In this document: positions 23,628 to 46,081 of the stretch, piece after piece
How the letters are laid out: each line of letters begins with the position of its first letter
Numbering within the stretch: position 1 is the stretch's first letter
Source of the DNA: an uncultured Hyphomonadaceae bacterium
GTDB lineage: Bacteria; Pseudomonadota; Alphaproteobacteria; Caulobacterales; Hyphomonadaceae
Direction of reading: 5' to 3'
NCBI GenBank assembly: GCA_938011445.1
Contig: CALLUH010000045.1
Location: 1-53,839, forward strand
DNA length: 53,839 nt
Notes under the pieces: model-generated
The model's database searches: none
The model's input: the letters and a program-made list of their open reading frames with translations, nothing else
What the model was told of the DNA's origin: nothing
Position numbers and translations under genes: made by a program

Positions 23628-23629
23628 CA

Positions 23630-24514: not shown

Positions 24515-24517
24515 TAA

Positions 24518-25480
24518 TCAGTCCGGAGAGGTTTGATCAATCTTCTCGATCTCCATCCGCAAAATGCGCGTGCGAAGCTCTTCCATGAGGGTCCGGTTTA
24601 CTGCGAGTAGGCGCGATATGATGGCCAGAGCAAAGCTTGTAAAGCCACCGGAAAACAAGATCGCCGAAAGAATGAGCGACTGTATGTGGTCGCCAGCGTT
24701 CTCCTGGGTAATCAGAATAAGATAGCGAATGCCCAAAGCGAAAGCCGGAATGACCAATAGGGCACTTAGAAACATAAAAACCTGAAACGGCCTGTAGATC
24801 AGGTAAATTCTGAAAATCGTTCCCATTGACCTGCGAACATAAGACGAGATGCTTTTGACCAGTCTTGACTCACGCAGATCACCATTGACCTCGATTGGTG
24901 CCGATGTAATTTTCATGCCGCTACGGCCAGCCTGAATAATCGTCTCAAGCGTGTAAGTGTAAGGGTTGTGCACCATCAGACGCATTGCCGCGTCTCTGTG
25001 TATGGCGCGAAATCCTGAGGGTGCGTCGGGGATCTGGGTTCGCGAAGCGGTTCGCACAACCGTGCTGCCAAGCTTTTGGAGCATCTTCTTGACCGGGTGA
25101 AAGTGTGGGATGTCGGTAATCGGCCTTGCGCCAATGACGATATCGGATTCGCCCGCAACAATCGGTCTTGTCAGTGTCGGGATGCCGCTCGCCCGATACT
25201 GATTGTCCGCATCCGTGTTGACGATCACATCAGCGCCAAGTCGCAGGCAAGCCTCCAAGCCCGCCATAAATGCACGCGCCAATCCCGAATTGTGCCGCAT
25301 CGAAACAACATGATCCACGCCGTGAGCCTTACCGACAGCTACCGTATTATCAGTGCTGCCATCATCAATAATCAGCCATTCGACAGTATCAAATCCGGGG
25401 ACTTCGCGCGGCAAATCTGCAAGCGTAATGGGGAGTGTCTCTTCCTCGTTCAGACAAGGTATCTGTATGATGAGTTTCAT
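24518..25480 (-). CDS. GtrB/CsbB-like GT2 polyprenyl-phosphate glycosyltransferase
   Basis: MKLIIQIPCLNEEETL...LIIDDGSTDNT...TDADNQY, plus two C-terminal TM helices (FMFLSALLVIPAFALGI and LILSAILFSGGFTSFALAII). This is the architecture of GtrB/CsbB/GacI-type enzymes. Confidence 0.8.
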   Translation of the reverse strand: MKLIIQIPCLNEEETLPITLADLPREVPGFDTVEWLIIDDGSTDNTVAVGKAHGVDHVVSMRHNSGLARAFMAGLEACLRLGADVIVNTDADNQYRASGIPTLTRPIVAGESDIVIGARPITDIPHFHPVKKMLQKLGSTVVRTASRTQIPDAPSGFRAIHRDAAMRLMVHNPYTYTLETIIQAGRSGMKITSAPIEVNGDLRESRLVKSISSYVRRSMGTIFRIYLIYRPFQVFMFLSALLVIPAFALGIRYLILITQENAGDHIQSLILSAILFSGGFTSFALAIISRLLAVNRTLMEELRTRILRMEIEKIDQTSPD

Positions 25481-25553: not shown

Positions 25554-28208
25554 TTATTCCGCAATGCCAATCCTGAAATCTTCAACGGTCCGCGAAAGAT
25601 GGGGGGAGTAGAAGGGGTCTATGAAGTTGAGGCTGTCCCAGGTTCTGACCATATATTCGATCTCTCCTTGAAAGCGTTGTTGTTTGGCAGCGGTGATTTC
25701 ATGCCCGCGGCTTATCGATTCATGGTGATAGAGTTCAGCCCTTGGCGTCCAGACATTCCTGTATCCTGCTGCCCTGACCCGCAGGCAAAGATCAACATCA
25801 TTGAAGGCAACAGCCAGCTCGCTTTCATTCAGCCCGTCCACCTCTTGATAGACTTCCCGCCTCATAAGCAGACATGCGGCGGTGACGGCGCTCAGATCCT
25901 GGGCCATCATCAGACGGGAAAAATAACCCTGATGCTCCCGAGGCGCGTATTTATGAGAATGCCCGGCCACCCCGCCAATTCCTAGAATAACGCCGGCATG
26001 CTGGATCGTATCATCAGGATAATAAAGCTTCGCGCCCACACACCCGATGTCCGGCTGGAGCGCCAGAGAGACCATCTCATCCAGCCAGTGCGGCGAGATC
26101 ACTTCAATGTCATTATTAACAAGCCCGATAATGTCCCCTCTGGCATGGGGGACAGCAAAATTATTGATCGCAGAATAATTGAACGGCTTGTCATAGCGCA
26201 GGACGCGAATGCGTGGATCTTTTGCTAGTTTGGCAAAAAGGTCGAGCGCGTCCGGATCGGTTGACTGATTGTCGATAATCAGAATTTCATAGTTTTCGTA
26301 AGTGGTTTTCTCCTGAATGGAGGTCACACACATCTTCACCAGATCAGCATAGTCGCGGGTCGGAACAATCAATGAAACAAGGGGTTGTTTCTCAGGAATG
26401 GGCCACTCCACTCGATAAATGGCAAGTTCACCAGCCTGTTTTGCCACAGCGCCAGGGTGACGCTTGTCGAGATGGTTTTGCAAGGCTTTCAGACCAGCAT
26501 CGAAGGCATAGCTTTTTTCTGAGGTAGCAAGCGCCGTTGACCCTTCCGTCGCGCGCCAATGATAAAGGATCTTCGGAATGTGGATGACGCTTTCAGGCGG
26601 GATGCGTTCGAGAATGCGCAAATTAAGGTCATAATCCTGTGACCCTTCATAACCCAGCCGCCACCCGCCGGCGGCACGAACTTGTTCAGCCCTGTGAACC
26701 GTCAAATGGTTGAAATAATTCTGACCAAGAAACATAAGGGGTGAATAGTCCGGTTTGAAATAGGGCTCGTACCGGTTGCCCTCATCGTCGATCTTATCTT
26801 CATCGGAGTAAATTAGATTAGCGTCTGGATGTTCGGCAATTGCCAGTGCAATTTCCGCGAGCGCATGAGGCCGTAAAACATCATCATGGTCCAGCATGGC
26901 AAGCCAGTCGCCAGTGGCAATCTCGAAGGCGCTGTTGGTTGCCGCAGAGATATTGCCATTGGTCTTCCGATGAACGACCTTGATCCGGCTGTCCTTTCCG
27001 GCCCAATAGTCCAGACGCGCCGCCACGTTGCCCTCCGTCGAGGCATCGTCGGCAAGGCATAGCTCCCAATTCTCATAAATTTGTTCTTGTACGGATTTGA
27101 TCATTTCATCGAGAAGACGGATGGGCGTGTTATAAACCGGCGTCAGGATCGAAATAACCGGCTTGTGTTCGAGTACGTCGAGCTTTTGGCAATAGGCCGG
27201 TTTATCGCGTGCCAGTCTGAAGTCACTTTGTTCAATCCATTTACTGAACCGGGCCGCCGGATCATAAGAGACCTCATGCGAGCGCTGCGGCTGGGTCGGC
27301 AGGCTCCATGCCCCTTCATGATTGCCGCGCCCCCGCGTGCGTGCCAGCATGATGCGCCAGTTTATCCCTGAGAAAAGGTTCTGCCAGACAACGGGTTTCA
27401 ACAGCAAACTAGACCTTGGTAGACGTCCGAGCGGATGAATATCGAGTGAATCGAGCGTCCCGTCCTCATGCCGGTTCGTGGGATCAAATCGAACCGTGCT
27501 GACGTCTTCGGCGAGGTGAAACAAGCCCGTATAGAGGTTCTCCTTTTGGGCGACCAAGCTACAAGCTTGCGCGTCCAGATAGCCCCGCTGGGTCCAAAAA
27601 TACATCTTTGGCACGGAGTTTTGCCCAATTTTTAGACGCGCCTCGATGCGATACCATCCGGCACGGAGCGGCGTGTGGAGCATGAACGAAACCGATGGAT
27701 CATTAGAAGTGGACCGAAAACTGCCGTTTGGGTCGAGGTCAATATTGCCCGTGCCAATTCTCTGGGCATGATGAGGCTGTGTCGCAGCATCTGTAAAACG
27801 CGCGGCGAAAATTCTCTTTGTCGATTTTCGCGGCTTGACGCCGGTTTGAGCCGGTTCGATTGCAAGTAACATCTGCCGGGCAAAGAACGCTCCTGAATGC
27901 GGGCGAAGCCGCAATTTTAAGGTCCCCTTCGGTAGTGTCACCGGTGTAATGGATGAGGGGGTCGGCATTTCGAGCTGGATGCCCAGATGATCCTTGAACC
28001 CGAAACCGACATCATATTGCAGGCGCGGATGCAGATCTTGATCCGGAGCAAATAGGGACATGCTGACCATGACATCGACATCGTTCTGCCGCAGGGCCGA
28101 GAGCAGGTGAGGGCTGAGCGGAATGTCGGCGTATGACAGATGGCTCTCAGACTCAACCCAGCCAGGACGCCAGCAAAAGTTGGGGCTTTGCAAGGAACGG
28201 TGCATCAT
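25554..28208 (-). CDS. three-part glycosyltransferase: ~330-aa N-terminal domain of unknown function plus two GT2 domains
   Basis: GT2 domain 1 is ISILTPVYNTPIRLLDEMIKSVQEQIYENWELCLADDAST. GT2 domain 2 is VSLIVPTRDYADLVKMCVTSIQEKTTYENYEILIIDNQSTD. This layout is typical of polymerising enzymes of ABC-dependent O-polysaccharides. Confidence 0.85.
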   Translation of the reverse strand: MMHRSLQSPNFCWRPGWVESESHLSYADIPLSPHLLSALRQNDVDVMVSMSLFAPDQDLHPRLQYDVGFGFKDHLGIQLEMPTPSSITPVTLPKGTLKLRLRPHSGAFFARQMLLAIEPAQTGVKPRKSTKRIFAARFTDAATQPHHAQRIGTGNIDLDPNGSFRSTSNDPSVSFMLHTPLRAGWYRIEARLKIGQNSVPKMYFWTQRGYLDAQACSLVAQKENLYTGLFHLAEDVSTVRFDPTNRHEDGTLDSLDIHPLGRLPRSSLLLKPVVWQNLFSGINWRIMLARTRGRGNHEGAWSLPTQPQRSHEVSYDPAARFSKWIEQSDFRLARDKPAYCQKLDVLEHKPVISILTPVYNTPIRLLDEMIKSVQEQIYENWELCLADDASTEGNVAARLDYWAGKDSRIKVVHRKTNGNISAATNSAFEIATGDWLAMLDHDDVLRPHALAEIALAIAEHPDANLIYSDEDKIDDEGNRYEPYFKPDYSPLMFLGQNYFNHLTVHRAEQVRAAGGWRLGYEGSQDYDLNLRILERIPPESVIHIPKILYHWRATEGSTALATSEKSYAFDAGLKALQNHLDKRHPGAVAKQAGELAIYRVEWPIPEKQPLVSLIVPTRDYADLVKMCVTSIQEKTTYENYEILIIDNQSTDPDALDLFAKLAKDPRIRVLRYDKPFNYSAINNFAVPHARGDIIGLVNNDIEVISPHWLDEMVSLALQPDIGCVGAKLYYPDDTIQHAGVILGIGGVAGHSHKYAPREHQGYFSRLMMAQDLSAVTAACLLMRREVYQEVDGLNESELAVAFNDVDLCLRVRAAGYRNVWTPRAELYHHESISRGHEITAAKQQRFQGEIEYMVRTWDSLNFIDPFYSPHLSRTVEDFRIGIAE

Positions 28209-28302: not shown

Positions 28303-29190
28303 TCATGTTAAACCACTAAAGACGGAAACCGGATCATCCAGATAGGTTGTAAGATTATGTGTTGGCCGTCCTTCATGAGCGCCAATTGTAACAAAGTGTT
28401 CGAAGGCGGTAAGGGAGGTTTCAGCAATATCAGGATTGGTCGCCTGATAGAAAACCGCATCGAAAAGGGGGTGCGGTTGGCGATTTTCTGCATTACCGTA
28501 AAGAACGAAATGGGCAAGCGGGTTGCGACGTGACCTTACCACATCCGGATTATGCGCCAGATACCAACTTGTGCTGAAGAAAGGATTGGGGTTTCGGCCT
28601 TCATCTGCGCCAAATATCAAAAAATGCTCCAATGCCCCCCCTGCAAAAGTCTTTGCGTCCGGATAGGCCTCGCAATACCAATCCCCTGCAAAAAGCGGCG
28701 AATTGACCAGCGCTGCGCGGTCTTCCATCAGTCGTGATTGGGAGCCATAAAAAGTGCTATAAGCAGCACGTGGCCGAAATGTGAGGAAGCGGAAAGCTGC
28801 CGCGAAAATGGAGGCCAGACGGCGACCTTTGCGCCCGGTCCGCCGTTCGATCCGGTAAAGAAAACTACACAAGCGCCAGCTTACCGAACCTTCGACATGT
28901 TGCCGATCCATTTGAATGCCCGAATTATGATCGGCGAGGGTTAATATCTGTAACAATGCAGCGCTTGCAACATTATCGATCTGATCCGCTTCCAGCTTAG
29001 GTGCTGAACGGGGACGGGCGGGGTCGACCTCGCCGGATTTGTCGGGATTTGCTTCATGCTCGTCATCGGTGTTCATAAAACGCCGGATGAACTCTTTCCT
29101 TACCGCCGCCAGATCAGCCTCCGCACTCGTCGAAAGGCGCGGTTCAGATCGGTCCTGATCCCGTCCATTTCTGAGTATATCATCTGCCAT
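28303..29190 (-). CDS. hypothetical protein: acidic/disordered N-terminus, SWRL motif, and three C-terminal copies of the ~37-aa locus repeat
   Basis: The 295-aa ORF fills the gap between the dual-GT2 gene and the divergent wzm promoter. Its C-terminus has FAGDWY...HFLIFGADEGRNPNP / FSTSWY...HFVLYGNAENRQPHP / FDAVFY...HFVTIGAHEGRPTH. Confidence 0.6.
   Translation of the reverse strand: MADDILRNGRDQDRSEPRLSTSAEADLAAVRKEFIRRFMNTDDEHEANPDKSGEVDPARPRSAPKLEADQIDNVASAALLQILTLADHNSGIQMDRQHVEGSVSWRLCSFLYRIERRTGRKGRRLASIFAAAFRFLTFRPRAAYSTFYGSQSRLMEDRAALVNSPLFAGDWYCEAYPDAKTFAGGALEHFLIFGADEGRNPNPFFSTSWYLAHNPDVVRSRRNPLAHFVLYGNAENRQPHPLFDAVFYQATNPDIAETSLTAFEHFVTIGAHEGRPTHNLTTYLDDPVSVFSGLT
28351..28701 (-). 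repeat. 3 x ~38-aa protein repeat (same family as 44162..45979)
   Basis: The aromatic F-x-x-x-[WF]-Y positions fall at residues 167, 205 and 243 of the 295-aa protein. Confidence 0.75.
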
Positions 29191-29426
29191 CTAACAAGCC
29201 TCGAAAATACATACACTGTTTCCAAACAAGTATTCCTTTAACATATAAATGCTCGCCGCCAAACGATATCTCCATTGGTCCAGCGACACTTGTAAGGCTG
29301 CATTTTTTGAATAGGGTCGACGTTTTTTAGTTCCATTTTGACCATGTTTACGATAGGGCTCTGACACTTCCGATCAGGTGGACATCAAATTTGGAGTCGG
29401 CAAAAAGTTGGCTTGTGGAGCTGTGT

Positions 29427-30206
29427 ATGACTGTAGTGCTGAACGATTTCTCGGCCATATTTTCGCGCTGGCGCATCTGGTGGATTATGGGGTTCCGCGA
29501 CATCCAGATGCGCTATCGCAGATCGTTTCTGGGACCGTTCTGGATTAGTCTGACCATGGCCGCCATGGTGTTTGGTATCGGCTTCTTGTTCAGCCAAATC
29601 TTCGACATCGAATTCAAGGCATTCCTTGCCTATATTGCAACTAGCTTTCTGATTTGGGGCATCCTCCAAAGCAATCTGAATGAGAGCTGCAACATAATGA
29701 TCGACTCCGAAGCACATTTGCGGGCAATGCGGCTCCCGGCATCCATATTGGCTGCCCAAATGGTTTGGCGGAATACACTGATATTCCTGCACAATTTGAT
29801 AGCGATTGGCGCAGTTCTACTTTACGCAAATGTGGATATGTCGGCGTCCTTGATCCTGCTGCTGCCCGCACTCGCCATCTTGTCTCTCATCGGTTTCTTC
29901 TCGGCCATCGTGCTTGGCCCATATGCCCTGAGATACCGTGATCTTGGTCAAGTTGTTATGAATGTAATGCAGATCGCATTCTTTATAACGCCAATTATCT
30001 GGATGCCCTCACAGGGGCGCTTGTCCTCGGTCTGGCTCGACTATAATCCGTTTTTCCATCTGGTTGAGATTGCGCGTGGTCCGCTACTTGGTTATTGGCC
30101 GTCTGCCACAAATTGGGCGGTATCTATCGGCATTTTGATTATCGCCGCTATCATGGCCTATGTTGCCACGGCTGTAAGCCGCGAAAAAGTGTATTTGTGG
30201 CTCTAG
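29427..30206 (+). CDS. wzm: ABC-2 type polysaccharide export permease
   Basis: The internal ATG (GGAG 6 nt upstream) gives MTVVLNDFSAIFSRWRIWWIMGFRDIQMRYRRSFLGPFW, a classic Wzm/KpsM N-terminus, with 6 predicted TM segments. Confidence 0.85.
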   Translation: MTVVLNDFSAIFSRWRIWWIMGFRDIQMRYRRSFLGPFWISLTMAAMVFGIGFLFSQIFDIEFKAFLAYIATSFLIWGILQSNLNESCNIMIDSEAHLRAMRLPASILAAQMVWRNTLIFLHNLIAIGAVLLYANVDMSASLILLLPALAILSLIGFFSAIVLGPYALRYRDLGQVVMNVMQIAFFITPIIWMPSQGRLSSVWLDYNPFFHLVEIARGPLLGYWPSATNWAVSIGILIIAAIMAYVATAVSREKVYLWL

Positions 30207-30254
30207 GGTGAAGCTGACCATCCTGCAAACCCCTGCTTTCCAATCGAGGATTTC

Positions 30255-31031
30255 ATGACGCGTATCGAGTTGAAGAATGTAAATTTCGAATACCCGCTCT
30301 ATGAAGTAGCGCAACGCTCGTTAAAGGTCAGCCTTATCGACCTTTTGCGCGGCTCCAGAGATGGGCCGAGCAGCGTCCATGCGATTAAAGATTTATCTAT
30401 AACGATTGACGATGGCGAGCGTGTTGGCCTGGTCGGGCGCAATGGTGCGGGTAAGTCGAGCCTTTTACGTCTGTTAAGTGGTATCGCATTTCCTACATCC
30501 GGCACAATCAAGACCTATGGCCGAATTGTCCCGGTCAATCAGACAGGCCTTGGGATCAATCCGGAGTTCTCCGCCGCCGACAATATTGAACTTCCATTGC
30601 GCTTTATTGGTGCGACAACGGAAGAGATTGAAGTTGCGCGCGCGGGCGTGCGTGAATTTGCCGATCTTGGTGAGTTCTTCGATCTGCCTGTGCGCCGTTA
30701 TTCGGACGGTATGAAAGCCCGTTTGACCTTTGCCCTCTCGACATCTATTCCAGCAGATGTGCTGGTTCTGGACGAGTGGCTGAGTGCAGGCGATGCCGAG
30801 TTTGTTGCTCGTGCCGAGCGCAGAATTAACGAATATATACACCGCATCAAAATCGTAATTCTGGCCAGCCACTCTATGGAGCTTCTGCGCACTGTTTGTA
30901 CCCGCGTGCTCTGGATGGAGAAAGGTGAACTGATCGCCGATGGCGAGCCGAATGAAGTGATAGACGCCTATCTGGCAAAGATACTGGATCAACCATTGCC
31001 AGATCAGGACAAGAAGATAATCAATATCTAG
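30255..31031 (+). CDS. wzt: polysaccharide export ABC transporter ATP-binding protein, short form without a C-terminal carbohydrate-binding domain
   Basis: Walker A GRNGAGKSS, signature YSDGMKARL, Walker B VLVLDEW, H-loop ASHS. The protein is only 258 aa. Confidence 0.9.
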   Translation: MTRIELKNVNFEYPLYEVAQRSLKVSLIDLLRGSRDGPSSVHAIKDLSITIDDGERVGLVGRNGAGKSSLLRLLSGIAFPTSGTIKTYGRIVPVNQTGLGINPEFSAADNIELPLRFIGATTEEIEVARAGVREFADLGEFFDLPVRRYSDGMKARLTFALSTSIPADVLVLDEWLSAGDAEFVARAERRINEYIHRIKIVILASHSMELLRTVCTRVLWMEKGELIADGEPNEVIDAYLAKILDQPLPDQDKKIINI

Positions 31032-34771: not shown

Positions 34772-35962
34772 ATGAACCTTGTCCGCACCTTCGCGCTCAA
34801 GCTCTTTCGTAGCTTGTTCATAATGTTTGTTCGCGCCAGCAAGCCAGTCTTCGGCACGAAACCATCGGAAGGTCCGGTGATCGTCTCCCTGTTCGAGGGC
34901 GAACCTTTTGGTCTGGGCGTTGCCGGTGGGCTGACTGTCTCGGCTTTGAAGGCGGCGGGCGTGGAGGTTAGGACACACAACTTACGCAAAGTGCTCGATC
35001 ATACGGCTTGGGGGAAAGGCACGCTTCCCGTGGCTGGTGGTGGCGTCTGGCTGATCCATTGCAATGCCCCCGAAGCCCTGACCGTGTTGATGAAGACCCA
35101 TCCAAAATTCTGGTTGCGCAAGCACCGGATCGGATACTGGGCGTATGAATTGCCCAGAGCGCCGAGGGACTGGGTTGCAATCTCCAATCTTTTCCACGAG
35201 ATCTGGGTGCCGAGCAAATTTGTTGCGATCGCGCTTGGGGATGTGCCAATTCCCGTCCGTATCATGGGTCATCCGGTTGATATGTCACCAGCCCCGGCGC
35301 CCGACAAAGCGCGCTTTGAAGTGTCATCAGACCGATTGGTGCTTTGTGCTGGTGATCTGCGGTCCTCGCTTGAGCGGAAGAATATCGCGGGAGCGATCAG
35401 CATCTATTGCCACGCCTTTCCCGAGCCGACAGGCCGTGTCTCTCTGATCATCAAGCTGATGGCCGCCGATCTTGAAGCACTTGACGACCAGCCCTGGGCA
35501 TCAATCTTGTCCGAGCGTTCCGATATTCATCTTCGGACAGATGTATTGAGCCCAGCGGATATGCGTTGCCTGATCGCTTCGAGCGATGTCTTCTTGTCCC
35601 CTCATCGTTCTGAAGGGTTCGGCCTATTGCTCGCTGAAATAATAGCGTGTGGAGGATTACCGCTTGCAACCAAGGGGTCGGGCAATATGGACTTCATGCG
35701 GGATCTACCCGCCTTGCTCATCCCCTCAAAACAGGTTCCTGTGCCAATCGGCGAGACGGTTTATGGCAATCGGGCAGACAGCCATTGGGCCGAACCCGAT
35801 CAGCAAATTGCAGCAGAAAAGCTCGCGCGCCTTATTGAACTTACGCCTACCGAGGTCGCTGTGCTCAATGGGCAAGCGATCAGACAACTTGAAGCAATAT
35901 GGCAAAGCTGGTCGAAGACTGCGCTGGGCGATATTTTTCCACACTTAAAGCCCGTCAATTAG
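34772..35962 (+). CDS. GT4-family (GT-B fold) glycosyltransferase
   Basis: C-terminal E-x7-E motif in SPHRSEGFGLLLAEIIACGGLPLAT. The start is uncertain (34772 or 34823). Confidence 0.75.
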   Translation: MNLVRTFALKLFRSLFIMFVRASKPVFGTKPSEGPVIVSLFEGEPFGLGVAGGLTVSALKAAGVEVRTHNLRKVLDHTAWGKGTLPVAGGGVWLIHCNAPEALTVLMKTHPKFWLRKHRIGYWAYELPRAPRDWVAISNLFHEIWVPSKFVAIALGDVPIPVRIMGHPVDMSPAPAPDKARFEVSSDRLVLCAGDLRSSLERKNIAGAISIYCHAFPEPTGRVSLIIKLMAADLEALDDQPWASILSERSDIHLRTDVLSPADMRCLIASSDVFLSPHRSEGFGLLLAEIIACGGLPLATKGSGNMDFMRDLPALLIPSKQVPVPIGETVYGNRADSHWAEPDQQIAAEKLARLIELTPTEVAVLNGQAIRQLEAIWQSWSKTALGDIFPHLKPVN

Positions 35963-37283
35963 CCCCCAAAGCTTCAAGCGCCTTGAGCCTGAGGTTCAGC
36001 GTCTCGATCAATACAGCTTGAATTTCGCAAGTTTCCACAAGCCGCTGGATCCAAGCGCCCGCCGGTAATCCCTTCTCGACATCGAACCCCACCTCGTTCG
36101 GCATCGAACACAAATGGCGCTTTTGCTGCCAATGGCGTGCATAACCGTCAAGCGTCAGCGGATCAAACTCTGAGCCGATGCGGCTGCGGAATTTCCGCAT
36201 ATAGACATGCTGCGGGCGCTCGCTCTTATTGGCAGGCACCTTCTCATCCCATTTGGATGCATTGATCTTACCATCAATTGCCTGATCAAACACATAGCAG
36301 GACAATAATGCATTATCGTCATAAATGGATTGCGCGTTAAGGCTACCGGGGCCTTTGTCACCGCCAGCTGGAAACCCGATGACAACCCCTCCAACTGGGC
36401 CAATTTGCATGCGTTGATTTTGATGCTGGAAAAACGCAATCGGTCCGGCCGTCGCATCATTGCGCATAACGAAAATACCGGATTGATCATGATAAAGAAT
36501 AGCACGCGTATCGACATTGGCGTTGGCAAGATCGATGCGAGCCCAATTGGCGGCATCATCATTACTCCGTGCGATCAGGGCAGGGTGGTATGGAGATTTC
36601 GAGACAAGCCGGGTACTGCCGGTATCCTTGTTGATTGTCATGGCATCATGCCAGATTGTGCCATCTGTCGAGACGCGAACGCCAAAATGATCCTGCCCGG
36701 ACAAGCCGATTTCGGCACGCCCGGAAAACCCTGTTTGAAAGACCGCGCTGGCCGTGCCAGCAATTGTAGCTTTGTTCAGAGCACAGCGTATATCCCCTGA
36801 TCCGGGTGTGACATCATCATGTGACAACAACACAGCATCAGATTTCACTGCAAGCCTGTTCGTGCTGTCGGCATCTGTGTTGACCCCCAGAAAAGCCGGA
36901 CTTTGAGCGGTGCGAGTGCTCTGCTCAGCGCTTGCGCCCATCTCAAGCGCGCGCCAGTCTGTGTCATTGAACACGGTTAGCTGGCGGTTATCGGCCACCC
37001 ACGCCCGCCACCCCGCCTTCGGTACGATCTCAACCCAGGCACCGTCCCGAAAGACGGCAATGGATCTCGATTGCATCCCCGACCAGGCCGCGCCCGTCTT
37101 GTTCTCGGGCAGGATATAGGCATCACCTGCCGCTGGCGCGCCAGGTTCGCTATCTATCGTGGCAGACTTTACTGAAAGTTGCACCACCGCGTCGAGCCGC
37201 CCGAGCGCTTCGTTCATGGTGACGTGTTTCTGTGCCTGCTGAGGCATAAGAAAAGGCAGGCCAAGGCTTGGGGAAACATCCAT
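35955..37283 (-). CDS. DUF2793-domain, phage/GTA tail-fibre-like protein
   Basis: N-terminus LGLPFLMPQQAQKHVTMNEALGRLDAVVQ and GDAYILPEN..GAWSG...IAVFRDGAWVEIVPKAGWRAWV match my memory of DUF2793. The C-terminal region ends in a helical stretch, IQAVLIETLNLRLKALEALGAN. GGAG lies 8 nt upstream of the ATG. Confidence 0.75.
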   Translation of the reverse strand: MDVSPSLGLPFLMPQQAQKHVTMNEALGRLDAVVQLSVKSATIDSEPGAPAAGDAYILPENKTGAAWSGMQSRSIAVFRDGAWVEIVPKAGWRAWVADNRQLTVFNDTDWRALEMGASAEQSTRTAQSPAFLGVNTDADSTNRLAVKSDAVLLSHDDVTPGSGDIRCALNKATIAGTASAVFQTGFSGRAEIGLSGQDHFGVRVSTDGTIWHDAMTINKDTGSTRLVSKSPYHPALIARSNDDAANWARIDLANANVDTRAILYHDQSGIFVMRNDATAGPIAFFQHQNQRMQIGPVGGVVIGFPAGGDKGPGSLNAQSIYDDNALLSCYVFDQAIDGKINASKWDEKVPANKSERPQHVYMRKFRSRIGSEFDPLTLDGYARHWQQKRHLCSMPNEVGFDVEKGLPAGAWIQRLVETCEIQAVLIETLNLRLKALEALGAN

Positions 37284-37470: not shown

Positions 37471-38187
37471 CTAGTGGTCTTCAGGAATGTGTTTCTCATA
37501 GTCCGGCACAGGCCGCCAATGCTCCCAGGCGAATTCCTTTGTCTGCCATGGGCGCAAGTCAGCGAGACCATAAACCGCCGTTGAGACGAAGACGACATCA
37601 ACTTGTGATAGAACGCCATGATAGTAGCAGCTATCAATAATATCGATAAGCTGGAAGCCGAGGGCCGTTACAGCGATAAGTCGCTCTTGCAGAGTTTCGA
37701 TCGTGGCTTCGACGATAATGCACGAAATATCATCCCGCGCGCCTGCCGCACTCTCGATGATTGGCACCTCGTATCCGTCAACGTCAATCTTGAGCAGGTA
37801 AGGGGTAGGATCAGAGCGGGCGGCAAGGAAATCATCGAGCCGAACGGTCTGGACATCGGAAACGGAGTCCGAGCCATCGTCAGTGCTTGTCAGGCTGCTA
37901 TGGGTCACACCACCGCCATCGACTGAATAAGTTTGCAGCTGCCCTGACCCGGAATGGCTTGAGACGGCATGAGGGAAGATTTCAAAGGTCATCCCTTCAT
38001 AATTCTCCCGGATCTTCGGGTGAAACTCTTTGACCGGTTCAAACAGAAGGTGAGGCAAGTCCGGAAACATCATACGCAGTTCATAGGTTTGCTCGTGCGC
38101 GCCGACATCAATGATGCACTGGATTGGAACGCCAAAACTCTTGAGTCTTTGCAGCGCGTTCAATTTTGATGGGAAGGGGTTCATCAC
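37471..38187 (-). CDS. FkbM-family methyltransferase
   Basis: IIDVGAHEQTYELRMMFPD (the FkbM-type VDVGAN-like SAM motif) and ...LLKIDVDGYEVPII (the LKIDVEG.E hallmark). Confidence 0.8.
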   Translation of the reverse strand: MMNPFPSKLNALQRLKSFGVPIQCIIDVGAHEQTYELRMMFPDLPHLLFEPVKEFHPKIRENYEGMTFEIFPHAVSSHSGSGQLQTYSVDGGGVTHSSLTSTDDGSDSVSDVQTVRLDDFLAARSDPTPYLLKIDVDGYEVPIIESAAGARDDISCIIVEATIETLQERLIAVTALGFQLIDIIDSCYYHGVLSQVDVVFVSTAVYGLADLRPWQTKEFAWEHWRPVPDYEKHIPEDH

Positions 38188-39155
38188 ATACCTCTTTCGG
38201 GAGTTCGTTGTTTCCAGCCAGCCATGAAATCCTTATAGGCGAGCCGGAGGCCGTCCGCTAACAACATTTTCGGTTGCCAGCCGAGTGCGGCCAATTTTGT
38301 GTTGTCCACGAGCTTGCGTGGTGTGCCGTCTGGATAGGAGGGGTCAAATCGGAGCGTACCCTGATAATCTGTAATCTTGGCAATCGTCTCTGCCAGTTTG
38401 GTAATTGTAATGTCGTGCCCAACGCCGACATTGATGATTTCTGCCGCATCATAGGATCTCAGAACCGTGATGCAGGCATTGGCCATATCATCAACATATA
38501 GAAATTCACGTCGCGGCGTTCCTGTGCCCCAGATGATAACCTCATCGGATCCGTTCTGCTTGGCCTCGTGAAATTTGCGCAAAAGCGCTGCAACGACATG
38601 ACTGTGTTCGGGGTGGTAATTGTCGCCCGGTCCGTAAAGATTAGATGGCATAACCGAAACATAGTGACGGCCATATTGCTGGCGCAGAGCCTGACAGAGT
38701 TTAATCCCGGCAATTTTTGCGATTGCGTACCATTCATTCGTTGTTTCAAGCGGGCCCGTCAGAAGTGCCTCTTCGCGCAGCGGCTGCTCGGCGTCGCGCG
38801 GATAGATGCATGTTGATCCCAAAAAGACCAGACGATCAACATCGCTATTGTGTGCGGCCATTAGGACATTGTTCTGCAGCTCGAGGTTCTGTAGCAGAAA
38901 ATCGACGGGGTAATCAGTGTTCGCTTTGATGCCGCCGACCATAGCCGCACACATCAGAACGGCATCTGGCGCGTGTTGCTTGCAGAAGTCCGCTGTTGCA
39001 GCCTTGTCAAGCAAATCCACCTCTGCACGTGTCGCCGTAATAATTTCGCAGTCTTCCGTCTGAAGTCGGCGAACCATCGCACTGCCGACCATGCCCCGAT
39101 GCCCCGCAACCCATATCTTCTTGCCCGATAGGGGCCAGTCAAAACGTGTTGTCAT
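38184..39155 (-). CDS. fcl: GDP-L-fucose synthase (GDP-4-keto-6-deoxymannose 3,5-epimerase/4-reductase)
   Basis: [53 protein letters not shown]. Confidence 0.93.
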
Positions 39156-40204
39156 ATCGTATTGTCGTTCAGCGCGGCAAGGTCACTCTGCACCATTTCC
39201 GTACAAAGATCCTGCCATGAGACCTTATGCGACCACCCCAGCTTGTTTCGAGCTTTGGACGGGTCGCCAATCAATAGTGCCACTTCCGTCGGACGGAAGT
39301 AGGCCGGGTCAACTTCGACAATTGACTTGCCCGTTTTGGTATCCAGTCCGCGCTCCTGGACGCCTTCACCTTCCCAGCGCAAGGTGATCCCGGCCGTTTT
39401 GAAGGCATGGTCGGCAAAAGCCCGCACTGATGTGGTTTCACCCGTGGCCAGAACATAGTCATCAGACCGCTCCTGCTGAACCATCATCCACATACCGTGA
39501 ACATAATCCTTTGCGTGCCCCCAATCACGCTGTGCCGCAAGATTGCCCAGGTAGAGTTTGTCCTGTTGCCCTTTGGAAATTGCTGCAACCGCACGGGTAA
39601 TCTTGCGCGTTACAAAGGTTTCGCCGCGTATCGGGCTTTCATGATTAAACAGAATGCCATTGGACGCATGAATGCCATAGGCTTCGCGATAATTTACCGT
39701 AATCCAATAGGCATAAAGCTTGGCGGCGGCATATGGACTGCGAGGATAGAAGGGGGTCGTCTCGGACTGAGGGGTTTCCTGGACTTTGCCATAGAGTTCG
39801 GATGTAGAGGCTTGATAGAACCGTGTCTTTTTCTCAAGCCCCAGAATTCTGATCGCTTCAAGCAGTCTCAGTGCCCCGATTGCATCAGAATTGGCCGTAT
39901 ATTCCGGCGTTTCGAAACTGACCTGAACGTGCGATTGTGCGGCGAGGTTGTAGATCTCGTCTGGTTGAACGCTTTGTACAATACGGATCAGGTTTGTTGA
40001 ATCCGTCACGTCTCCATAATGTAGAATAAAACTGGGATGTTCGACATGCGGATCTTCGTAAATGTGTTCTATCCGCAAAGTATTGAACGAAGACGACCGA
40101 CGTTTCACGCCATGGACTTCATACCCCTTTTCCAAAAGGAGATCGGCTAGATATGCGCCGTCCTGCCCTGTAATACCGGTAATCAATGCAACCTTCTTAC
40201 CCAT
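39152..40204 (-). CDS. gmd: GDP-mannose 4,6-dehydratase
   Basis: [69 protein letters not shown]. Confidence 0.96.
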
Positions 40205-42581
40205 CTTCTCTGAGCGTCCTGTCTTTCTCGAACTTTAGTCTCGATATGGCCTCCACAAATCGGCGCTCACCCGCATCTGATCCATTACCAACATAGTCAA
40301 TGCAGCCTTGTATCAGCGCTTCGCGCGTCACCTCCAGATATTGGTGCCCATGCGCCTCATCTGGTTCGAGATAGGCACCCTCGGCCCATTTATTCCATGC
40401 ATTTATGAAAAGAAATGGATGCTGACGATCCTTTCGCAAGAGCGTTTCATGCGTCAGAAATCTCAACCACGAGCCATAGGCCTTCGGCGATTCATTTATC
40501 AGAATATGCCCGGCCTCTTTGCGACGGGCGGAATTGTCCCATCTTGGAAAAAGCCCGCGATAGAGTGTGTAGTCCGATGGCGGCCGATTAATGCTGTTAC
40601 GGGCAACACCGATATAGTCTTCCAGATACCCCGTAAAATCTGGCGATAACGTGGTCACGTTTGCAGGATCAATCAGGTGCCGATTGACATGCGGCGGTGA
40701 AAACTCGATTGCAGCATCTGCCCCGTACGGTCTCGGGTCGCCAATACCAAAAGATTGGATGGCCACAATATGCAGTCCGTCAAGGCCATGCTCCCTGGCC
40801 AATTGCCGCCAGACTTTACAAGCGGCAACTGCATCCGGAATGTCGGATATCTTGTAAATTGCCAGAAGCGGTTTGCCATCGACCTTTATATACCGGTCAT
40901 CCTGCAAGATTGGCAGCACATCCATGAAAAACTTCCGGGCATAATCATCCGAATACGGTTGTTCCATTAGAACTTCCGTTGACGACCCATCCCAACGTCG
41001 GCTCCACGGCTCGTTCGCCCAGCAAATACAAAAGTCGAAGTCGGGTCCGGATTCAAGCCATTGATCGAGCGGTGTTTCAAGTAGCCGTCGCCCATCAAAC
41101 CAGTAATAGTAAAAGCAGAATCCCGACACGCCATTTTTACGGGCGAGGGCAGCCTGCTTATGCATGATGTCCGTATTGCGCAGATCGTAAAAACCCAGAT
41201 CAGTCGGCAGTCGTGGCTGGTCTTGACCCTTTAGATTCTGTGGCGCTCTGACGACATTGGCCCATTCCGTAAACCCTTGTCCCCACCATTTGTCATTTTC
41301 AGGAATGGTATGGAATTGCGGCAGATAGAATGCAATCACGTCAACCGGCGGTTTGCCTGCCGGTATTGTATCTGCGCACGCTTTGACAGGCTTATATGTC
41401 GGGGTGATCGGGGTTATGACTGATGCGTAGAATCTTTCAAGTTTCTTTGCTGCGATCTTCCAGGACAGGTTCTTTTGGGCGAATGCCTTGCCAGCCGCCC
41501 CAATCGCCGCTCCCCTATCGGGGGAGCCAAGTAACCGCAGAATAGAATTGGCAATATCGAACGCGTCGCCTTCGCGCAATTTTATCGCATTCTTGCCGTC
41601 CTCCAGGACGCGGCCAATATTTGAATTGGGGAGAATAACGGGTCGCCCGGAAATGAGAAACTCTGTGAGCTTGGAAGGAAACCGGTAATTATTAAACGGA
41701 TTGGCCGCGCCCGGCTGAACAAGTATATCTGCCGAATTAACCAGAACCGGAATCTCCGAGCGTTCCAGAAAGCCCAGATTGACAACGCCTGCTTCTTCAA
41801 GGTCCGTCTCGGAGAAACCCAGATCGGCATAATCCCAGCCCGTTCGCAGAAGCCGCACAGGAACACCCCGCCGGCGCAGAATAGCCGCTGCGATATAAAG
41901 TTCGCGGATCTCGTCAACAATTGAACCGTGCACATTGCCGCAATACAGAAGCATAATCTCATCTGCGACAACGCCATATCTCTCTCGAACAGCAGCGGCA
42001 TCAACGTCCGCCTCGAATGCGGGGTCATAGCCTGGCCAGAACATCATTTTAGGTTGCGAAGGAGCAGCATATTCAAGCAATTTATCGATCAATGCGGTTA
42101 AACCGTCTGCCTGCTGGATAAAATTTTGAGAGATATGCGGGAGTGAGCGAATATCGGCACTGGTCCCGAGCATTCTGGCGACATATTCTGCTGGCATAGA
42201 TCGCAACTCATCATAGTCAAATTTGTTTGCGAGTTCGTCGAGGACAATCTGCTCCTCATTGTCTTCCATGTGCACGATAAGCTTGGCCTTATGCTTCTCG
42301 CGCAGGGCTGTGGCAATTCTGACAATATGTGTGCGAGGCGTCCATGCGTGTATAATATCGGCAACCGCGCCCTTGCTGAACAGGTTCTCCTGTTGCAAAC
42401 TTTCCGCATACTGAAAAATAGCGAATGGAGGTGTTGTCGAATGGAATAGAATACTGTCCGGTGTATCAGGAACAAGAACCACACATTCATGTCCCAGCTC
42501 GCAAAGTTCGCGGGCCACACTGAACACATGCATTGCGCTATTGCCCAGGAAGTTACAATGAGAGATCAGGATAATGTTCAT
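40197..42581 (-). CDS. fusion protein: N-terminal GT4-like glycosyltransferase plus C-terminal WbsX-family domain
   Basis: Residues 1-395 have GT-B-like features ([19 protein letters not shown]...; ...[16 protein letters not shown]). From about residue 412 the sequence [31 protein letters not shown] is the WbsX-family hallmark. The start overlaps the upstream stop (TAATG). Confidence 0.8.
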
Positions 42582-45500
42582 TACGTTTCCACCGATTCGC
42601 AGCCGAACGATGGGTCACCGTCGAAATTTTGATTGAAGAATGGGTCATGAACAACCCCATGGACCGCTGCATTCCTGTCCAGAAGAAATCGATCAACTGA
42701 GCTGGCCTTGAATGATGCAAGCCCGCTCTGGTCCACAACAACCCGCTTTCCTGAAACAGCGACGTTCTGGAAGCCCTTGGCAAAAGCTCTCAAAGAGAGA
42801 TCGCAAAGAGCAAACACAGGATCGCGATAATCAGTGTCGAGACTTCCCAGTGAGATAAAAGTCTCGCGATTAAAGCCGACCGCATGACCATAGACCCCGA
42901 CAACTTCACGATCACACAAAAGCGACCCCGCATGGCCATCGCTCGCCGCGTCGAGCCCTGCCATCGCCGGATAGAGATTCTTACCACCAAGGACCGTGCC
43001 CGCGGCGATGATAGCTTCGCTTGTGGATTGCGCGTTTAATCCGACAAGGCCAATATTCTCTTCTGCCAGATACATATTGAGATAGTCTGCCCAATCGCGT
43101 CCGCTGACCGTAGCCCCTTCGCTCAGATAAATGATCGTCTCCGCTGAGCAGTTTTTCACAGCCCAGTTGAGCGTCTCAACCATTGAAGGGGATGTCCCTC
43201 CCCTGGTGTCTTCTACCAGCTGGACATCATCCTTCCCGCAGGCCTTGGAAACGGTTTCCGCCATTTTTTCGCTGGTTACGAGGATTGTTGTGGGCGGTCG
43301 TTCGATCTTCTGGAAATTTGGCGAGATCTTGACGCGGTGGGCACACGTGGGGTGGGGATGCGCACTCCGTGGTCGGTTCAAGCGTTCGAAATGGGCATTA
43401 ACGGCTTTCGCCTGCAAGGTGCTAATATCACCCTTCGCCGACGCATTCCCCGCAATACTGCCTGGGACTTGCCGCCAGTGATAGGTAATGTCGGCAACAT
43501 GTTCGATAAGCCGGGTTCTTTCTCCGATCCGCAGCATGAACTCGAAGTCTTGCAGCCGGTCAAACTGGCTATCAAACCCGCCCACCTCTTCTGCGAGAGC
43601 TTTGCGTACCGCCAGCAAGTGGCCGACATACATAATGCCCGCCATGAATTTTGGTGACCATGCCGGCTTGAAAAAGGTGCGTACCATTTCACCTTCTGCC
43701 GAGACATAAGCCTGATCCGTGTATACGACATCAGCATCGGTCGCCCCAAAGCGCTCGGCCAATAAAGACAGTGTCGTTGGGGCGAGCACATCATCATGGT
43801 CAAGCATGACCACATATTTCCCCGTCGCCTTTCCAAGCGCATAGTTCGTCGCATTTGAGATGCCGCTATTCTTCGACAATGCATAGGCATTGATGCGCGG
43901 CTCTTTTTTAGCAAATTCCCAGGCGCACATGCGGGGCGCCCTTATGGACGAGCCATCATCTACGATAACAAGTTCCCAATTTTCATAATCCTGTGCGATG
44001 ACGCTTTCGATCATGCGTGAAAAATGACCCTGATCGGAATTATAAGTCGGCACCAAGATCGAAAACTTCGTATCCATGTTCAGGCCCGTGCTTGCCACCG
44101 GCCGGGGCGTGAAAGCACGCATTGGCCTTGGCGCGCCATTTGATTGCGGGTTTGGTGCATCCAATCGGGTATTGGATCGGAATTTGACATATTCGATTAG
44201 AGCATCACAACCCTCTTCAAGAGGGAATGTTTGCGCCACAGCAAAAGCGTCAAACAAGGGATGTGGATGTCTGCGGTCACTGATCGGCAGGCGAAGATAG
44301 CCGGGAAGCCCAGATTCCCGGAGCGCGTCATCCTGAAGAATCATAGCCATATAATCTATGTTTAGAACGGGGTGGGGATTATATTGTTTCTTGATGCCTT
44401 CGCACAGATAATGCGTCAGCGGGCCGTTTCGGTGCTGTAAAGACCCCGGATATAGGCTCTTGTAAAAGCGCACATCGAATAGCGGGTGACACGAATAGCC
44501 AAGCCCGTCTCCAATCGCTACGAAATGGACCCATAACGGAATTTCGGTTTCCCGGTTAAGCAATCCGAACCCGTACCATTCCCCGTCGAAGATAATATGC
44601 GGGGATAGCCCTTCCATATGTCCCTTGTCCAGAAAATGGGTCAGCGGGTTAAGATCAGCTAGGGGCATGTCAAGTTGATCAGAATAATAATCCGGATCGA
44701 AGACCGGATGGGGGCTAAAGCCTTTCCTCCATCCGGTTGAAATATAATCCGAAACCAGATCAAATTCATCACTACTCTGAGCCTTGGACTGGGAAGCATA
44801 CCATAGCGCATCAAAGCAGGGCGAGAACGAACGTTTCTCTTTCCAGCCATATTGGACATAGTGCCGGACGCCCTCGCCGACGGCCTTTGGCACATCCGGT
44901 TGTTGTGCAAGATAGTGCTCTTCGCGGAATATCGGATGCGCAGCGCGGCCTTCCTTCCAGCCATTGGCCAGGAAGTGTTCGATCACATCAACTTCGTGCA
45001 GATCATCGGCTGTCTGGGCGTAATAGTCCGGATCAAACACGGGCGACAAAACGCCTTGTCGGCCGGATCGGAGCCAGTGTCCAACCGGCTCGTATTGGGC
45101 TTGGCGGGGCTGGTTTCTGAGCAGCCATTCGGTGCTGATAACTGGATGTGGCGACAAGCTGGCCTGCCATCCACGCCATAAATAATGTTGCAACGGCGTC
45201 GAGCCATTCAAGCTTTCATCGCCCAGCGATTCTACATAGAAGATCGCGTCGAAATAGTGGCTTGGCGACACTTCAGCCAGATCCGGGTCGGATTGGTAAA
45301 GTGCGAGACCATTGGCAGTTTCCGGTGCCTCGGTTTCTGCGAAAAACAGTTGGGTCGAAAAGAGAGGGTGCGGGTCTGGAGCATCGGCACCGGTATACAT
45401 CAAATAGAACAGAAAGGGCGGCAGCGTGTCCCCTGCGGGCATTTGGCTGCGCACATAATCGGTATCAAATAGCGGGTGGGGGTCAAACCCAAGTATCAGG

Positions 45501-46081
45501 CCTTTGGTTACAAAGTGCACAAAGGGTGCGGTGTCCTCTATGTCACTGGCATAAGCCTCTGCGTAAAAGGGCGCATCAAAGCATGGATGGGGCGACAGGC
45601 CTTCATACTGCCCATAGGCCAGATAGTCGCTCAAGGCATCTGCCTCGATCAATGAACGCTCTAGCTGCGCCAGATACCAGGGTTCGTCGAACAATAGCCC
45701 GATAAGCGGGTCGTTTATATCAAGGCGCTCGGCCTGTTTATTCTGCAAAGAGGATGGAGACCCCTCATTGTGCCCTTTGCCGAACAGAACCCAATGGACA
45801 AGCGGATTGACGCCCCGTTCACGTAAACTCGGATTGAGGTCAAGATACCCAATGGTGCTGAAGTCGGAATTTGGGTCACGCCCTTCTTTCCAGCCCACCT
45901 CCATAAAATGCACGAGCGCGTCGTCAATGCCCCGCATTTCTGGCTTGTCGCGCGTGTAGAATGTTTCATCAAAGTATGGCCTGACGATTTTCAGTATAGA
46001 AGCGTCTAACGTCTCGCCACTCATCGTTTTCGTCACGATTATACTCTCCGCTAAGATCAATTTTAGGAACATAGTTAGCAC
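42581..46081 (-). CDS. 1166-aa protein: 16 x ~37-aa repeats, a GT2 domain and a second GT-A-like C-terminal domain
   Basis: GT2 motif FSILVPTYNSDQGHFSRMIESVIAQDYENWELVIVDDGSS...MLDHDD. The start is ambiguous: GTG 46081, ATG 46072 or ATG 46024. Confidence 0.8.
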   Translation of the reverse strand: MLTMFLKLILAESIIVTKTMSGETLDASILKIVRPYFDETFYTRDKPEMRGIDDALVHFMEVGWKEGRDPNSDFSTIGYLDLNPSLRERGVNPLVHWVLFGKGHNEGSPSSLQNKQAERLDINDPLIGLLFDEPWYLAQLERSLIEADALSDYLAYGQYEGLSPHPCFDAPFYAEAYASDIEDTAPFVHFVTKGLILGFDPHPLFDTDYVRSQMPAGDTLPPFLFYLMYTGADAPDPHPLFSTQLFFAETEAPETANGLALYQSDPDLAEVSPSHYFDAIFYVESLGDESLNGSTPLQHYLWRGWQASLSPHPVISTEWLLRNQPRQAQYEPVGHWLRSGRQGVLSPVFDPDYYAQTADDLHEVDVIEHFLANGWKEGRAAHPIFREEHYLAQQPDVPKAVGEGVRHYVQYGWKEKRSFSPCFDALWYASQSKAQSSDEFDLVSDYISTGWRKGFSPHPVFDPDYYSDQLDMPLADLNPLTHFLDKGHMEGLSPHIIFDGEWYGFGLLNRETEIPLWVHFVAIGDGLGYSCHPLFDVRFYKSLYPGSLQHRNGPLTHYLCEGIKKQYNPHPVLNIDYMAMILQDDALRESGLPGYLRLPISDRRHPHPLFDAFAVAQTFPLEEGCDALIEYVKFRSNTRLDAPNPQSNGAPRPMRAFTPRPVASTGLNMDTKFSILVPTYNSDQGHFSRMIESVIAQDYENWELVIVDDGSSIRAPRMCAWEFAKKEPRINAYALSKNSGISNATNYALGKATGKYVVMLDHDDVLAPTTLSLLAERFGATDADVVYTDQAYVSAEGEMVRTFFKPAWSPKFMAGIMYVGHLLAVRKALAEEVGGFDSQFDRLQDFEFMLRIGERTRLIEHVADITYHWRQVPGSIAGNASAKGDISTLQAKAVNAHFERLNRPRSAHPHPTCAHRVKISPNFQKIERPPTTILVTSEKMAETVSKACGKDDVQLVEDTRGGTSPSMVETLNWAVKNCSAETIIYLSEGATVSGRDWADYLNMYLAEENIGLVGLNAQSTSEAIIAAGTVLGGKNLYPAMAGLDAASDGHAGSLLCDREVVGVYGHAVGFNRETFISLGSLDTDYRDPVFALCDLSLRAFAKGFQNVAVSGKRVVVDQSGLASFKASSVDRFLLDRNAAVHGVVHDPFFNQNFDGDPSFGCESVET
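44162..45979 (-). repeat. protein-level tandem array, 16 units of 34-38 aa (F-[DS]-x-x-aromatic-Y ... P-x-x-H-aromatic-x-x-x-G-x-x-E-G-x-x-P-H-P)
   Basis: The unit-initial aromatic residue falls at residues 37, 74, 131, 168, 205, 241, 277, 315, 349, 385, 423, 461, 498, 535, 573 and 610 of the ORF-track translation. Confidence 0.85.

Follow-up and report, generated by a model that had tools for sequence, protein, structure and literature searches.

A tandem repeat of about 38 residues, apparently a new family, in front of a two-domain glycosyltransferase in a Hyphomonadaceae polysaccharide locus

What does a long array of tandem repeats do in front of a glycosyltransferase? The question is raised by one gene in a contig of an uncultured Hyphomonadaceae bacterium (CALLUH010000045.1, assembly GCA_938011445.1, positions 1 to 53,839). 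The whole stretch of 53,839 nucleotides (nt) is called the window below, and the open reading frame (ORF) in question and its product are called the target. The original prediction, made from the letters alone, described sixteen units of about 37 amino acids (aa) preceding a family 2 glycosyltransferase (GT2) domain, and proposed that the array could be a glycan-binding solenoid, an assembly scaffold, or a chain-length ruler. On the basis of the sequence searches and structure models described here, the repeat is best described as a new family, apparently with a new fold, among helical tandem-repeat accessory domains.

The target ORF and the parts of its array are listed below. The bit scores were obtained with an external hidden Markov model (HMM) built from 958 units, all from proteins other than the target. 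The predicted local distance difference test (pLDDT) scores are from AlphaFold.

42581..46081, reverse strand: whole target ORF, 1166 aa from GTG 46081
46036, reverse strand: alternative GTG start at aa 16, with GGAGAG 7 nt upstream as the best Shine-Dalgarno sequence
46024, reverse strand: alternative ATG start at aa 20, used by public gene calls (1147 aa); protein P0244 is 100% identical from M20
45761..45988, reverse strand: repeat units 1-2, aa 32-107; 34 and 31 bits; pLDDT ~90 in the full-length model
45707..45760, reverse strand: insert between units 2 and 3, aa 108-125; pLDDT 32-43; no unit found by the HMM
44153..45706, reverse strand: repeat units 3-16, aa 126-643; units 5, 6, 13, 15, and 16 degenerate in sequence
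44078..44152, reverse strand: Pro-rich, low-confidence linker from the array to the catalytic module, aa 644-668; pLDDT <50 at aa 637-663

Either GTG 46036 or ATG 46024 is likely to be the start of the target ORF, and the array is untouched by any choice among the three starts. The array spans aa 32-643 and consists of 16 tandem units of ~37-38 aa. All 16 positions listed in the original prediction are in register with one periodic unit, and the span reported for them (44162..45979) corresponds to aa 35-640. The spacing of 34-38 aa with a single exception of 57 aa was also reproduced, and the exception arises from the low-confidence stretch between units 2 and 3 (predicted aa 107-130). The strict pattern F[DS]xx[FYW][FYLVI] is matched by 10 of the 16 anchor positions and has no other occurrence in the protein.

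The external HMM gives 288 bits for the target protein, against 7.8 bits for the best of 200 shuffles of aa 30-650. Eleven units (1-4, 7-12, and 14) are solid, scoring 14-37 bits each. The other five (units 5, 6, 13, 15, and 16) are degenerate, none exceeding 12.5 bits and unit 15 falling below zero, and match the family motif over the first 8-17 positions only. An HMM trained on the target's own 16 units recovers each of them at 29-49 bits, a self-trained result. Identity among the units is 22% on average and 41% at maximum. At the DNA level, Tandem Repeats Finder (TRF) detected no tandem repeat in the array, and the DNA matches are short and at the level of the motif only. Judging from the undetectable DNA repeat and the low mean identity of the units, the array is an old, diverged protein repeat, as had been proposed. 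Super-repeats or a recent internal duplication were considered and rejected, as there is no higher-order periodicity among the units. The array is acidic and rich in aromatic residues (isoelectric point (pI) 4.8, net charge about −42, 13.7% F+Y+W), and no hydrophobic or membrane segment is predicted in the target protein.

The repeat is far from being confined to the target. In a protein library clustered at 50% identity, a profile made from the target's 16 units hits 18,602 clusters at E≤1e-3, of which 9,880 remain at E≤1e-10 and 2,121 at E≤1e-30. The family consensus is [DN]P[HSN]PLFDtaYYLaqNPDVaaaGvNPLvHYlxxGwkEGR, in which F6, Y11, P25, H28, and G33 are each more than 89% conserved, and the modal period is 38 residues (1227 of the spacings counted). 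Since one unit is worth roughly 25-35 bits in the score distribution, we infer only 2-4 units for about half of the family members and at least five for about a tenth. Acidity is a family-wide property of the arrays, with a median pI of 5.6 and about −1.4 charge per unit across 274 arrays. The original prediction mentioned the motif in one or a few copies in uncharacterised polysaccharide-locus proteins; the motif is indeed uncharacterised, but it is much commoner than was thought, with arrays reaching 34 units.

No name could be attached to this large family. Pfam-A (models to 2025) and NCBIfam (2026) report no family for aa 1-670 of the target, and Pfam gave no match for P0081, a nearly repeat-only relative. 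At E≤10, Pfam gave no match for a family-consensus construct and no repeat family for this construct or for aa 271-650. Named helical repeat families (TPR, SEL1, etc.) gave no match to the target protein at E≤1. A phmmer search of PDB sequences with the array and with four copies of the family consensus gave nothing meaningful, and full-text literature searches, including searches with motif strings, found no description of the repeat. Nor did Pfam, PDB sequences, or Foldseek match it to a known carbohydrate-binding module (CBM), lectin, or cell-wall-binding repeat. The earlier statement that the motif has no named family or structure is thus borne out by these searches. DUF4214 (PF13946), which we take to be another domain common to glycosyltransferases and RTX/M10 proteins, was considered as a candidate and rejected; it appears in no Pfam scan, and its only link to the repeat is a weak Foldseek match (E 0.5) with a viral protein named DUF4214.

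The proteins that carry the repeat should be noted, since they are related to its possible function, as described later. Most of the partner domains belong to polysaccharide enzymes, namely GT2, GT4, GT61, RgpF, WbsX/GH99-like, WsaF, methyl-, sulfo-, and pyruvyltransferases, and PIG-L deacetylase. A minority of the hosts are apparently secreted, namely an M10/serralysin-type peptidase, a haem peroxidase, and a CAP-domain protein, all with RTX repeats, and in these the array is C-terminal. Alphaproteobacteria predominate among the named host organisms (Azospirillum, Bradyrhizobium, Methylobacterium, the roseobacter group, Rhizobium, and Ensifer); also represented, among others, are Ralstonia, Acidobacteria, and Verrucomicrobia, as well as E. 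coli and Enterobacter through their plasmids or chromosomes. Models of a glycosyltransferase, FkbM, and a sugar reductase of giant viruses (Klosneuvirinae, ChoanoV1) in BFVD are weak Foldseek matches with 22-33% identity, and ten IMG/VR contigs (loci L020-L029) encode proteins with 1-2 units. From these two observations, the repeat seems to be present in viral glycosylation genes too. Metagenomic proteins of ~742-750 aa are recurrent (P0029, P0033, P0037, P0040, P0042, and others); they have 6-9 C-terminal units at aa ~375-740, preceded by an N-terminal region of ~375 aa that is constant in length and matches no Pfam family.

The predicted fold was examined in two models. In the full-length AlphaFold model, made from a mixed alignment, aa 107-455 are at low confidence because the alignment coverage is patchy there. 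A second model was made with AlphaFold2 for aa 271-650 (units 7-16), aligned with 22 array-only sub-sequences, and gave a pLDDT of 86.1 and a predicted template modelling score (pTM) of 0.83. Most of the ten modelled units have a β-bridge in the P-x-P-x-F-D loop, followed by two or three short helices. The first helix has 7 residues (xxYYLxx) and is followed in some units by a short turn or helix (NPDV), and the last one has 9-12 residues (PLxHYLxxGxxEG). The helix pattern recurs in all ten units, and the degenerate units 13, 15, and 16 are modelled with it at pLDDT >80. Over both models, the predicted array helices are 4-13 residues long. The high pTM implies that units 7-16 would stack into a single continuous structure and not be strung like separate beads. 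A Foldseek search of this model against 350,542 PDB chains gave no match at E≤10, so that the predicted array fold, within reach of these searches, is one without a solved analogue. A repeat fold, which the original prediction had left to be examined by modelling, is thus modelled with confidence for units 7-16.

The catalytic half of the target protein comprises the following two domains.

43367..44077, reverse strand: first GT-A domain (GT2), aa ~669-905; PF00535 E=2.8e-26; pLDDT >90
42602..43309, reverse strand: second GT-A-like domain, aa ~925-1160; weak PF13712 match; pLDDT >90

The GT2 domain predicted behind the array is intact. PF00535 matches aa 674-795 with 92.9 bits (gathering cutoff, 23.3), and the DHDD motif (D761-H-D-D764) is invariant in 72 homologues. 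The description of the catalytic half as a single GT2 domain was incomplete, as it consists of two tandem GT-A domains, the second of which had been missed. In the second domain, S-E-G (aa 987-989) occupies the position where homologues mostly have N/D-N/D-D, and to judge from these residues the domain may be catalytically inactive or metal-independent. The best Foldseek matches of the catalytic half are the heparosan synthase PmHS2 (8vh8) and the chondroitin polymerase K4CP (2z86), followed by TarS and RmlT (E 1e-12 to 1e-16). PmHS2 and K4CP share the two tandem GT-A domains, aligned with E ~1e-16 to 1e-15 over ~560 columns, and K4CP is also similar in sequence (phmmer, 1e-16). However, the identity to the two enzymes is only 13-22%, and the orientation of the domains differs, with a root mean square deviation of 15-22 Å over both domains. 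Contrary to the target, both lack a repeat array, and the second domain of the target has no DxD motif. The catalytic half is an ordinary GT2 member with a two-GT-A layout like those of K4CP and PmHS2.

Relatives of the target differ widely in the number of units. Profile scans of genome contigs for close orthologues gave distant GT2 relatives only, and exact-sequence look-ups with both start variants of the target gave no match. Copy numbers were compared using positional orthologues, which are 34-39% identical to the target. The order of target, GT4+WbsX, gmd, reductase, and FkbM is kept in Reyranella sp. CPCC 100927 (L015), with identities to the window of 34-39%, 40%, 71%, 63%, and 49%, respectively. 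In an Enterovirga sp. contig (L017), these families are also found around the orthologue but are ordered differently, and an RTX protein lies beside the conserved block. The orthologues from Reyranella (P0121) and Enterovirga (P0123) have 6 units each, versus 16 in the target. A neighbouring RgpF+WbsX protein in Reyranella has 4 units, giving two array proteins in that locus. The repeat is present, with 1-8 units, in 24 of 120 homologues of the 516-aa catalytic module and absent from the other 96. The copy number across relatives ranges from 0 to 34, with a maximum of 24 in the protein library. The longest array, 34 units, is found in a 1698-aa protein annotated as 'glycosyltransferase family 4 protein' (L012, 14627-19723) on plasmid pAB510f of Azospirillum sp. 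B510 (NC_013860.1), beside rfbABCD and type I secretion genes. The 16 units of the target are therefore long, not exceptional.

Collinear orthology of whole arrays was also considered, as P0001 and P0002 align over 96% of the array. It was rejected, since the unit-by-unit identity matrices show no diagonal; the units would rather be interchangeable copies drifting around a consensus than position-specific orthologues.

The layout of the host proteins shows a preference. Among the 141 best-scoring representative proteins, the array precedes the enzymes in 79 and is central in 54. Ten central-array proteins were scanned, and the C-terminal flank contains glycosyltransferases in all ten. The N-terminal flank is a methyltransferase in four (P0243, P0247, P0248, and P0252), a pyruvyltransferase in one (P0241), and matches no enzyme family in the other five; in P0247, a coiled-coil-type match also precedes the array. 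In a kps-like capsule locus on the E. coli KE47 chromosome (NZ_CP141089.1, L013, 9732-14884), units are found on two adjacent genes. A 910-aa class I methyltransferase ends in 2 units and the adjacent 804-aa GT2 starts with 1, possibly a single array divided between two proteins. E. coli and Enterobacter plasmids also carry gene pairs of this kind.

The window itself is a polysaccharide locus. It contains an ABC-2-type (ATP-binding cassette) exporter, rmlABCD, manC, gmd, a GDP-sugar reductase, an FkbM methyltransferase, and glycosyltransferase proteins of GT4, GT4+WbsX, 2xGT2, and RgpF types. The features that bear on the array are as follows.

37471..42581, reverse strand: four genes downstream of the target, encoding GT4+WbsX (794 aa), GDP-mannose 4,6-dehydratase, a reductase/epimerase, and an FkbM methyltransferase
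29391..31031, forward strand: ABC-2-type exporter, with the permease at 29391-30206 (multiple hydrophobic segments) and the ATPase at 30255-31031 (258 aa)
28303..29190, reverse strand: second repeat-bearing ORF, 295 aa; adjoins the ABC exporter genes, upstream of the 2xGT2 gene
28366..28701, reverse strand: three consensus-like units in the 295-aa ORF, aa 164-275; E=1.5e-23 with the HMM of the target's 16 units

The exporter agrees with the ABC-dependent polymer assumed in the original prediction. The ABC ATPase is only 258 aa long and thus lacks the C-terminal carbohydrate-binding extension of the Wzt proteins that recognise capped chains. A universal link of the repeat with Wzm/Wzt exporters is unsupported; an ABC-2-type exporter was found in the window, in L016, and in the E. 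coli locus L013, and was not seen within 10 kb in L014, L017, L018, and L019. Among the locus proteins scanned, no coiled-coil family was reported by Pfam; no coiled-coil predictor was run.

The 295-aa ORF had escaped notice before. It matches no Pfam family, and its N-terminal 165 aa have no homologue in 5.8 billion proteins, so that this region was rejected as a conserved partner domain. The protein may serve as a small partner in docking, or else the called start may be wrong. Directly downstream of it, an 884-aa protein (25554-28208, reverse strand) has two GT2 domains and an unassigned N-terminal region of ~340 aa. Several other proteins in the window are also worth recording. At the edge of the polysaccharide locus, a 1128-aa protein (13185-16571, forward strand) has 17 matched stretches of RTX nonapeptide repeats (HemolysinCabind) and is a probable type I secreted protein. 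At 20242-25480, two proteins that match no Pfam family, a polytopic membrane protein of 843 aa and a membrane protein of 391 aa, adjoin a 320-aa GT2, a layout that, by analogy only, may resemble three-component periplasmic glycan decoration systems. A DUF2793 protein of 442 aa (35955-37283, reverse strand) lies amid sugar-nucleotide and glycosyltransferase genes.

How, then, could the array serve the enzyme? It is non-catalytic, since no enzyme family matches it, and it is acidic. In the target protein it is cytoplasmic, as indicated by the absence of a hydrophobic segment and by the likeness of the catalytic module to PmHS2 and K4CP, and it is predicted to be a continuous solenoid. Our preference, a tentative one held with rather less than even confidence, is that the array is a length-adjustable spacing and docking arm for the glycosyltransferase module. 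An acidic, aromatic-rich solenoid would be tied by a probably flexible segment of ~25 residues to a cytoplasmic two-GT-A module, encoded in an ABC-transporter-dependent polysaccharide locus with rml and GDP-6-deoxyhexose genes (6-deoxyhexoses such as rhamnose). The arm would hold the module at a set distance from, or in contact with, other cytoplasmic parts of the assembly; candidate partners are the growing chain, enzymes of modification or termination, and further array proteins, the 295-aa ORF being one example. The array would take the place of the extended coiled coil of WbdD and WbbB, with the number of units as a tunable parameter.

Three observations from the comparison point to such an arm. 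Arrays are almost always upstream of glycosyltransferase modules. When they are central, a methyl- or pyruvyltransferase lies upstream in 5 of the 10 proteins and glycosyltransferases lie downstream. Furthermore, several proteins per locus may carry arrays, as seen in the window (two), in Reyranella (two), and in KE47 (split). The division of the KE47 units between the adjacent methyltransferase and GT2 suggests that arrays of different polypeptides might stack on each other. That the length is tunable is suggested by the 0-8 units on the same catalytic module, the 6 units in the orthologues, and the 34 units in Azospirillum.

Other observations weigh against the arm. The linker between the array and the glycosyltransferase module is predicted at low confidence and is probably flexible, which makes a precise ruler a poor fit, and the target array bears no terminating domain at its distal, N-terminal end. 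With only 2-4 units, as estimated for about half of the family, an array would not be long enough to act as a spacer and would look more like a small domain for binding or docking. The repeat is also found C-terminally on the apparently secreted RTX proteins (M10/serralysin-type peptidase, haem peroxidase, and CAP-domain protein), to which a role in cytoplasmic assembly cannot apply.

These secreted hosts are the main reason why glycan binding is kept as a strong rival, one that we consider possible though somewhat unlikely. The array would then be a multivalent, CBM-like solenoid that holds nascent or finished polysaccharide, making the cytoplasmic enzymes processive and anchoring the secreted RTX/M10 proteins to the cell-surface polymer. 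A glycan is the only single ligand that fits cytoplasmic transferases, secreted RTX/M10/peroxidase proteins, and giant-virus glycosylation enzymes alike. Like CBMs, the array is on a probably flexible tether and can be at either end of the protein. The variable copy number and the common short arrays of 2-4 units are also compatible with binding, as are the aromatic content of the array, the conserved D, N, E, R, and H positions, and the frequent company of rhamnose/6-deoxyhexose loci and of RgpF, WsaF, and WbsX enzymes. Glucansucrases, polymerases with a product-binding array of glucan-binding repeats, are a precedent. Anchoring to wall polymers by tandem motifs is also established elsewhere, for example with CWB2 and PSII (PMC4973711). 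However, approximately 20 of the 38 positions are conserved across enzymes making chemically different polymers, and the motif therefore looks structural rather than ligand-specific. In addition, 5 of the 16 target units have lost most of the motif, and the searches of Pfam, PDB sequences, and Foldseek revealed no likeness to a CBM or lectin.

A stronger version of the spacing arm is doubtful. Here the repeat would be a new solenoid fold replacing the coiled coil as a programmable ruler or track in the cytoplasmic assembly of ABC-exported glycans. The number of units (6 in Reyranella and Enterovirga, 16 in the target, and 34 in Azospirillum) would set the chain length before modification or export, and arrays of the same locus would dock end to end.

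It is improbable that the long array is mostly decaying ballast, kept in frame only so as to fold harmlessly, with function left in a few consensus-like units or in none. The mutual identity of 22% among the target units, compared with 30-45% to consensus-like units of other proteins, is consistent with such relaxation, as are the five degenerate units, the 6 units of the positional orthologues, and the many catalytic-module homologues without any. However, the reading frame has remained open over ~1.8 kb without loss of the period, the fold of the unit is modelled with confidence for degenerate units 13, 15, and 16, and long arrays recur in thousands of clusters. It is very improbable that the array binds the inner-membrane surface or undecaprenyl pyrophosphate and brings enzymes to their lipid-linked substrate; a ligand shared by enzymes acting on lipid-linked substrates would explain the conservation across enzymes, and interfacial residues (W, Y, R, K, and H) are conserved, but membrane binding is made unlikely by the acidity of the arrays throughout the family (pI 4.8 and about −42 in the target), and the array has no amphipathic or hydrophobic segment and the repeat is also on secreted proteins. 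The comparative evidence thus narrows the three roles of the original prediction only modestly, in favour of spacing or docking and against membrane binding.

The repeat is of interest because its family is large, no structural analogue was found, and its placement in relatives is ruler-like. The control of chain length and enzyme order in ABC-dependent polysaccharide synthesis is understood only for coiled-coil systems in a few enterobacterial serotypes. Almost all classes of bacterial polysaccharide enzyme have members fused to the present repeat, and some relatives carry it at the position of the ruler. Once the repeat is defined, thousands of long 'hypothetical' segments could be annotated in loci for O-antigen, capsule, and exopolysaccharide (among them those of rhizobia, Azospirillum, Ralstonia, and E. 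coli plasmids), and the known repeat folds would gain a new one. Unit number would also offer a directly testable handle on the length of the polymer, on which serum resistance, symbiosis, and phage sensitivity depend.

Three kinds of known systems resemble the array in different respects. Tandem repeats that bind polymers include, in addition to CWB2 motifs, the choline-binding/CW_binding_1 repeats and the glucan-binding repeats of glucansucrases. Like the CWB2 motifs (PMC4973711), the array consists of aromatic-rich tandem modules in variable number at either end of enzymes making or acting on cell-surface glycans. However, repeats of this kind are β-rich or α/β and extracellular, whereas those of the target are predicted to be helical and their hosts are mostly cytoplasmic enzymes; neither sequence nor fold matches the target array.

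The TPR and SEL1-type solenoids come closest to the array in general shape. TPR, SEL1, HEAT/ARM, and PPR repeats are also tandem units of 34-40 residues, with short helices stacked in a solenoid and a variable copy number. All these families are commonly scaffolds, including those in polysaccharide secretion machines (AlgK, PgaA, and BcsC). The predicted unit of the target, with two or three short helices plus a β-bridge, is different from their simple helix-turn-helix pair, and the consensus motif is unlike that of any of these families. As neither profile nor fold matches, the target is outside the TPR/SEL1 families.

The remaining comparison is with WbdD (E. coli O9a and K. pneumoniae O3) and WbbB (K. 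pneumoniae O12), coiled-coil molecular rulers that follow a terminator-ruler-polymerase logic in ABC-transporter-dependent O-antigen synthesis (PMC11231755). The array differs from them in that it is not a coiled coil according to the models, with helices of 7-12 residues in 38-residue units. The target also has no terminating domain, its array beginning within ~30 residues of the N-terminus, whereas some relatives, such as P0241, P0243, P0248, and P0252, have one. The linker between the array and the glycosyltransferase module is probably flexible, and the repeat also occurs in secreted proteins. Without a coiled coil or a terminator domain, the target is outside the class of coiled-coil rulers. 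The likeness lies in the setting and in the order of the parts. Both belong to a cytoplasmic pathway for an ABC-exported polysaccharide and combine a long, non-catalytic helical element, by fusion or by association, with polymerising glycosyltransferase modules. In relatives of the target, moreover, the sequence of methyl- or pyruvyltransferase, array, and glycosyltransferases corresponds to the terminator, spacer, and polymerase order of WbbB. In architecture, the coiled-coil ruler offers the nearest working analogy to the array.

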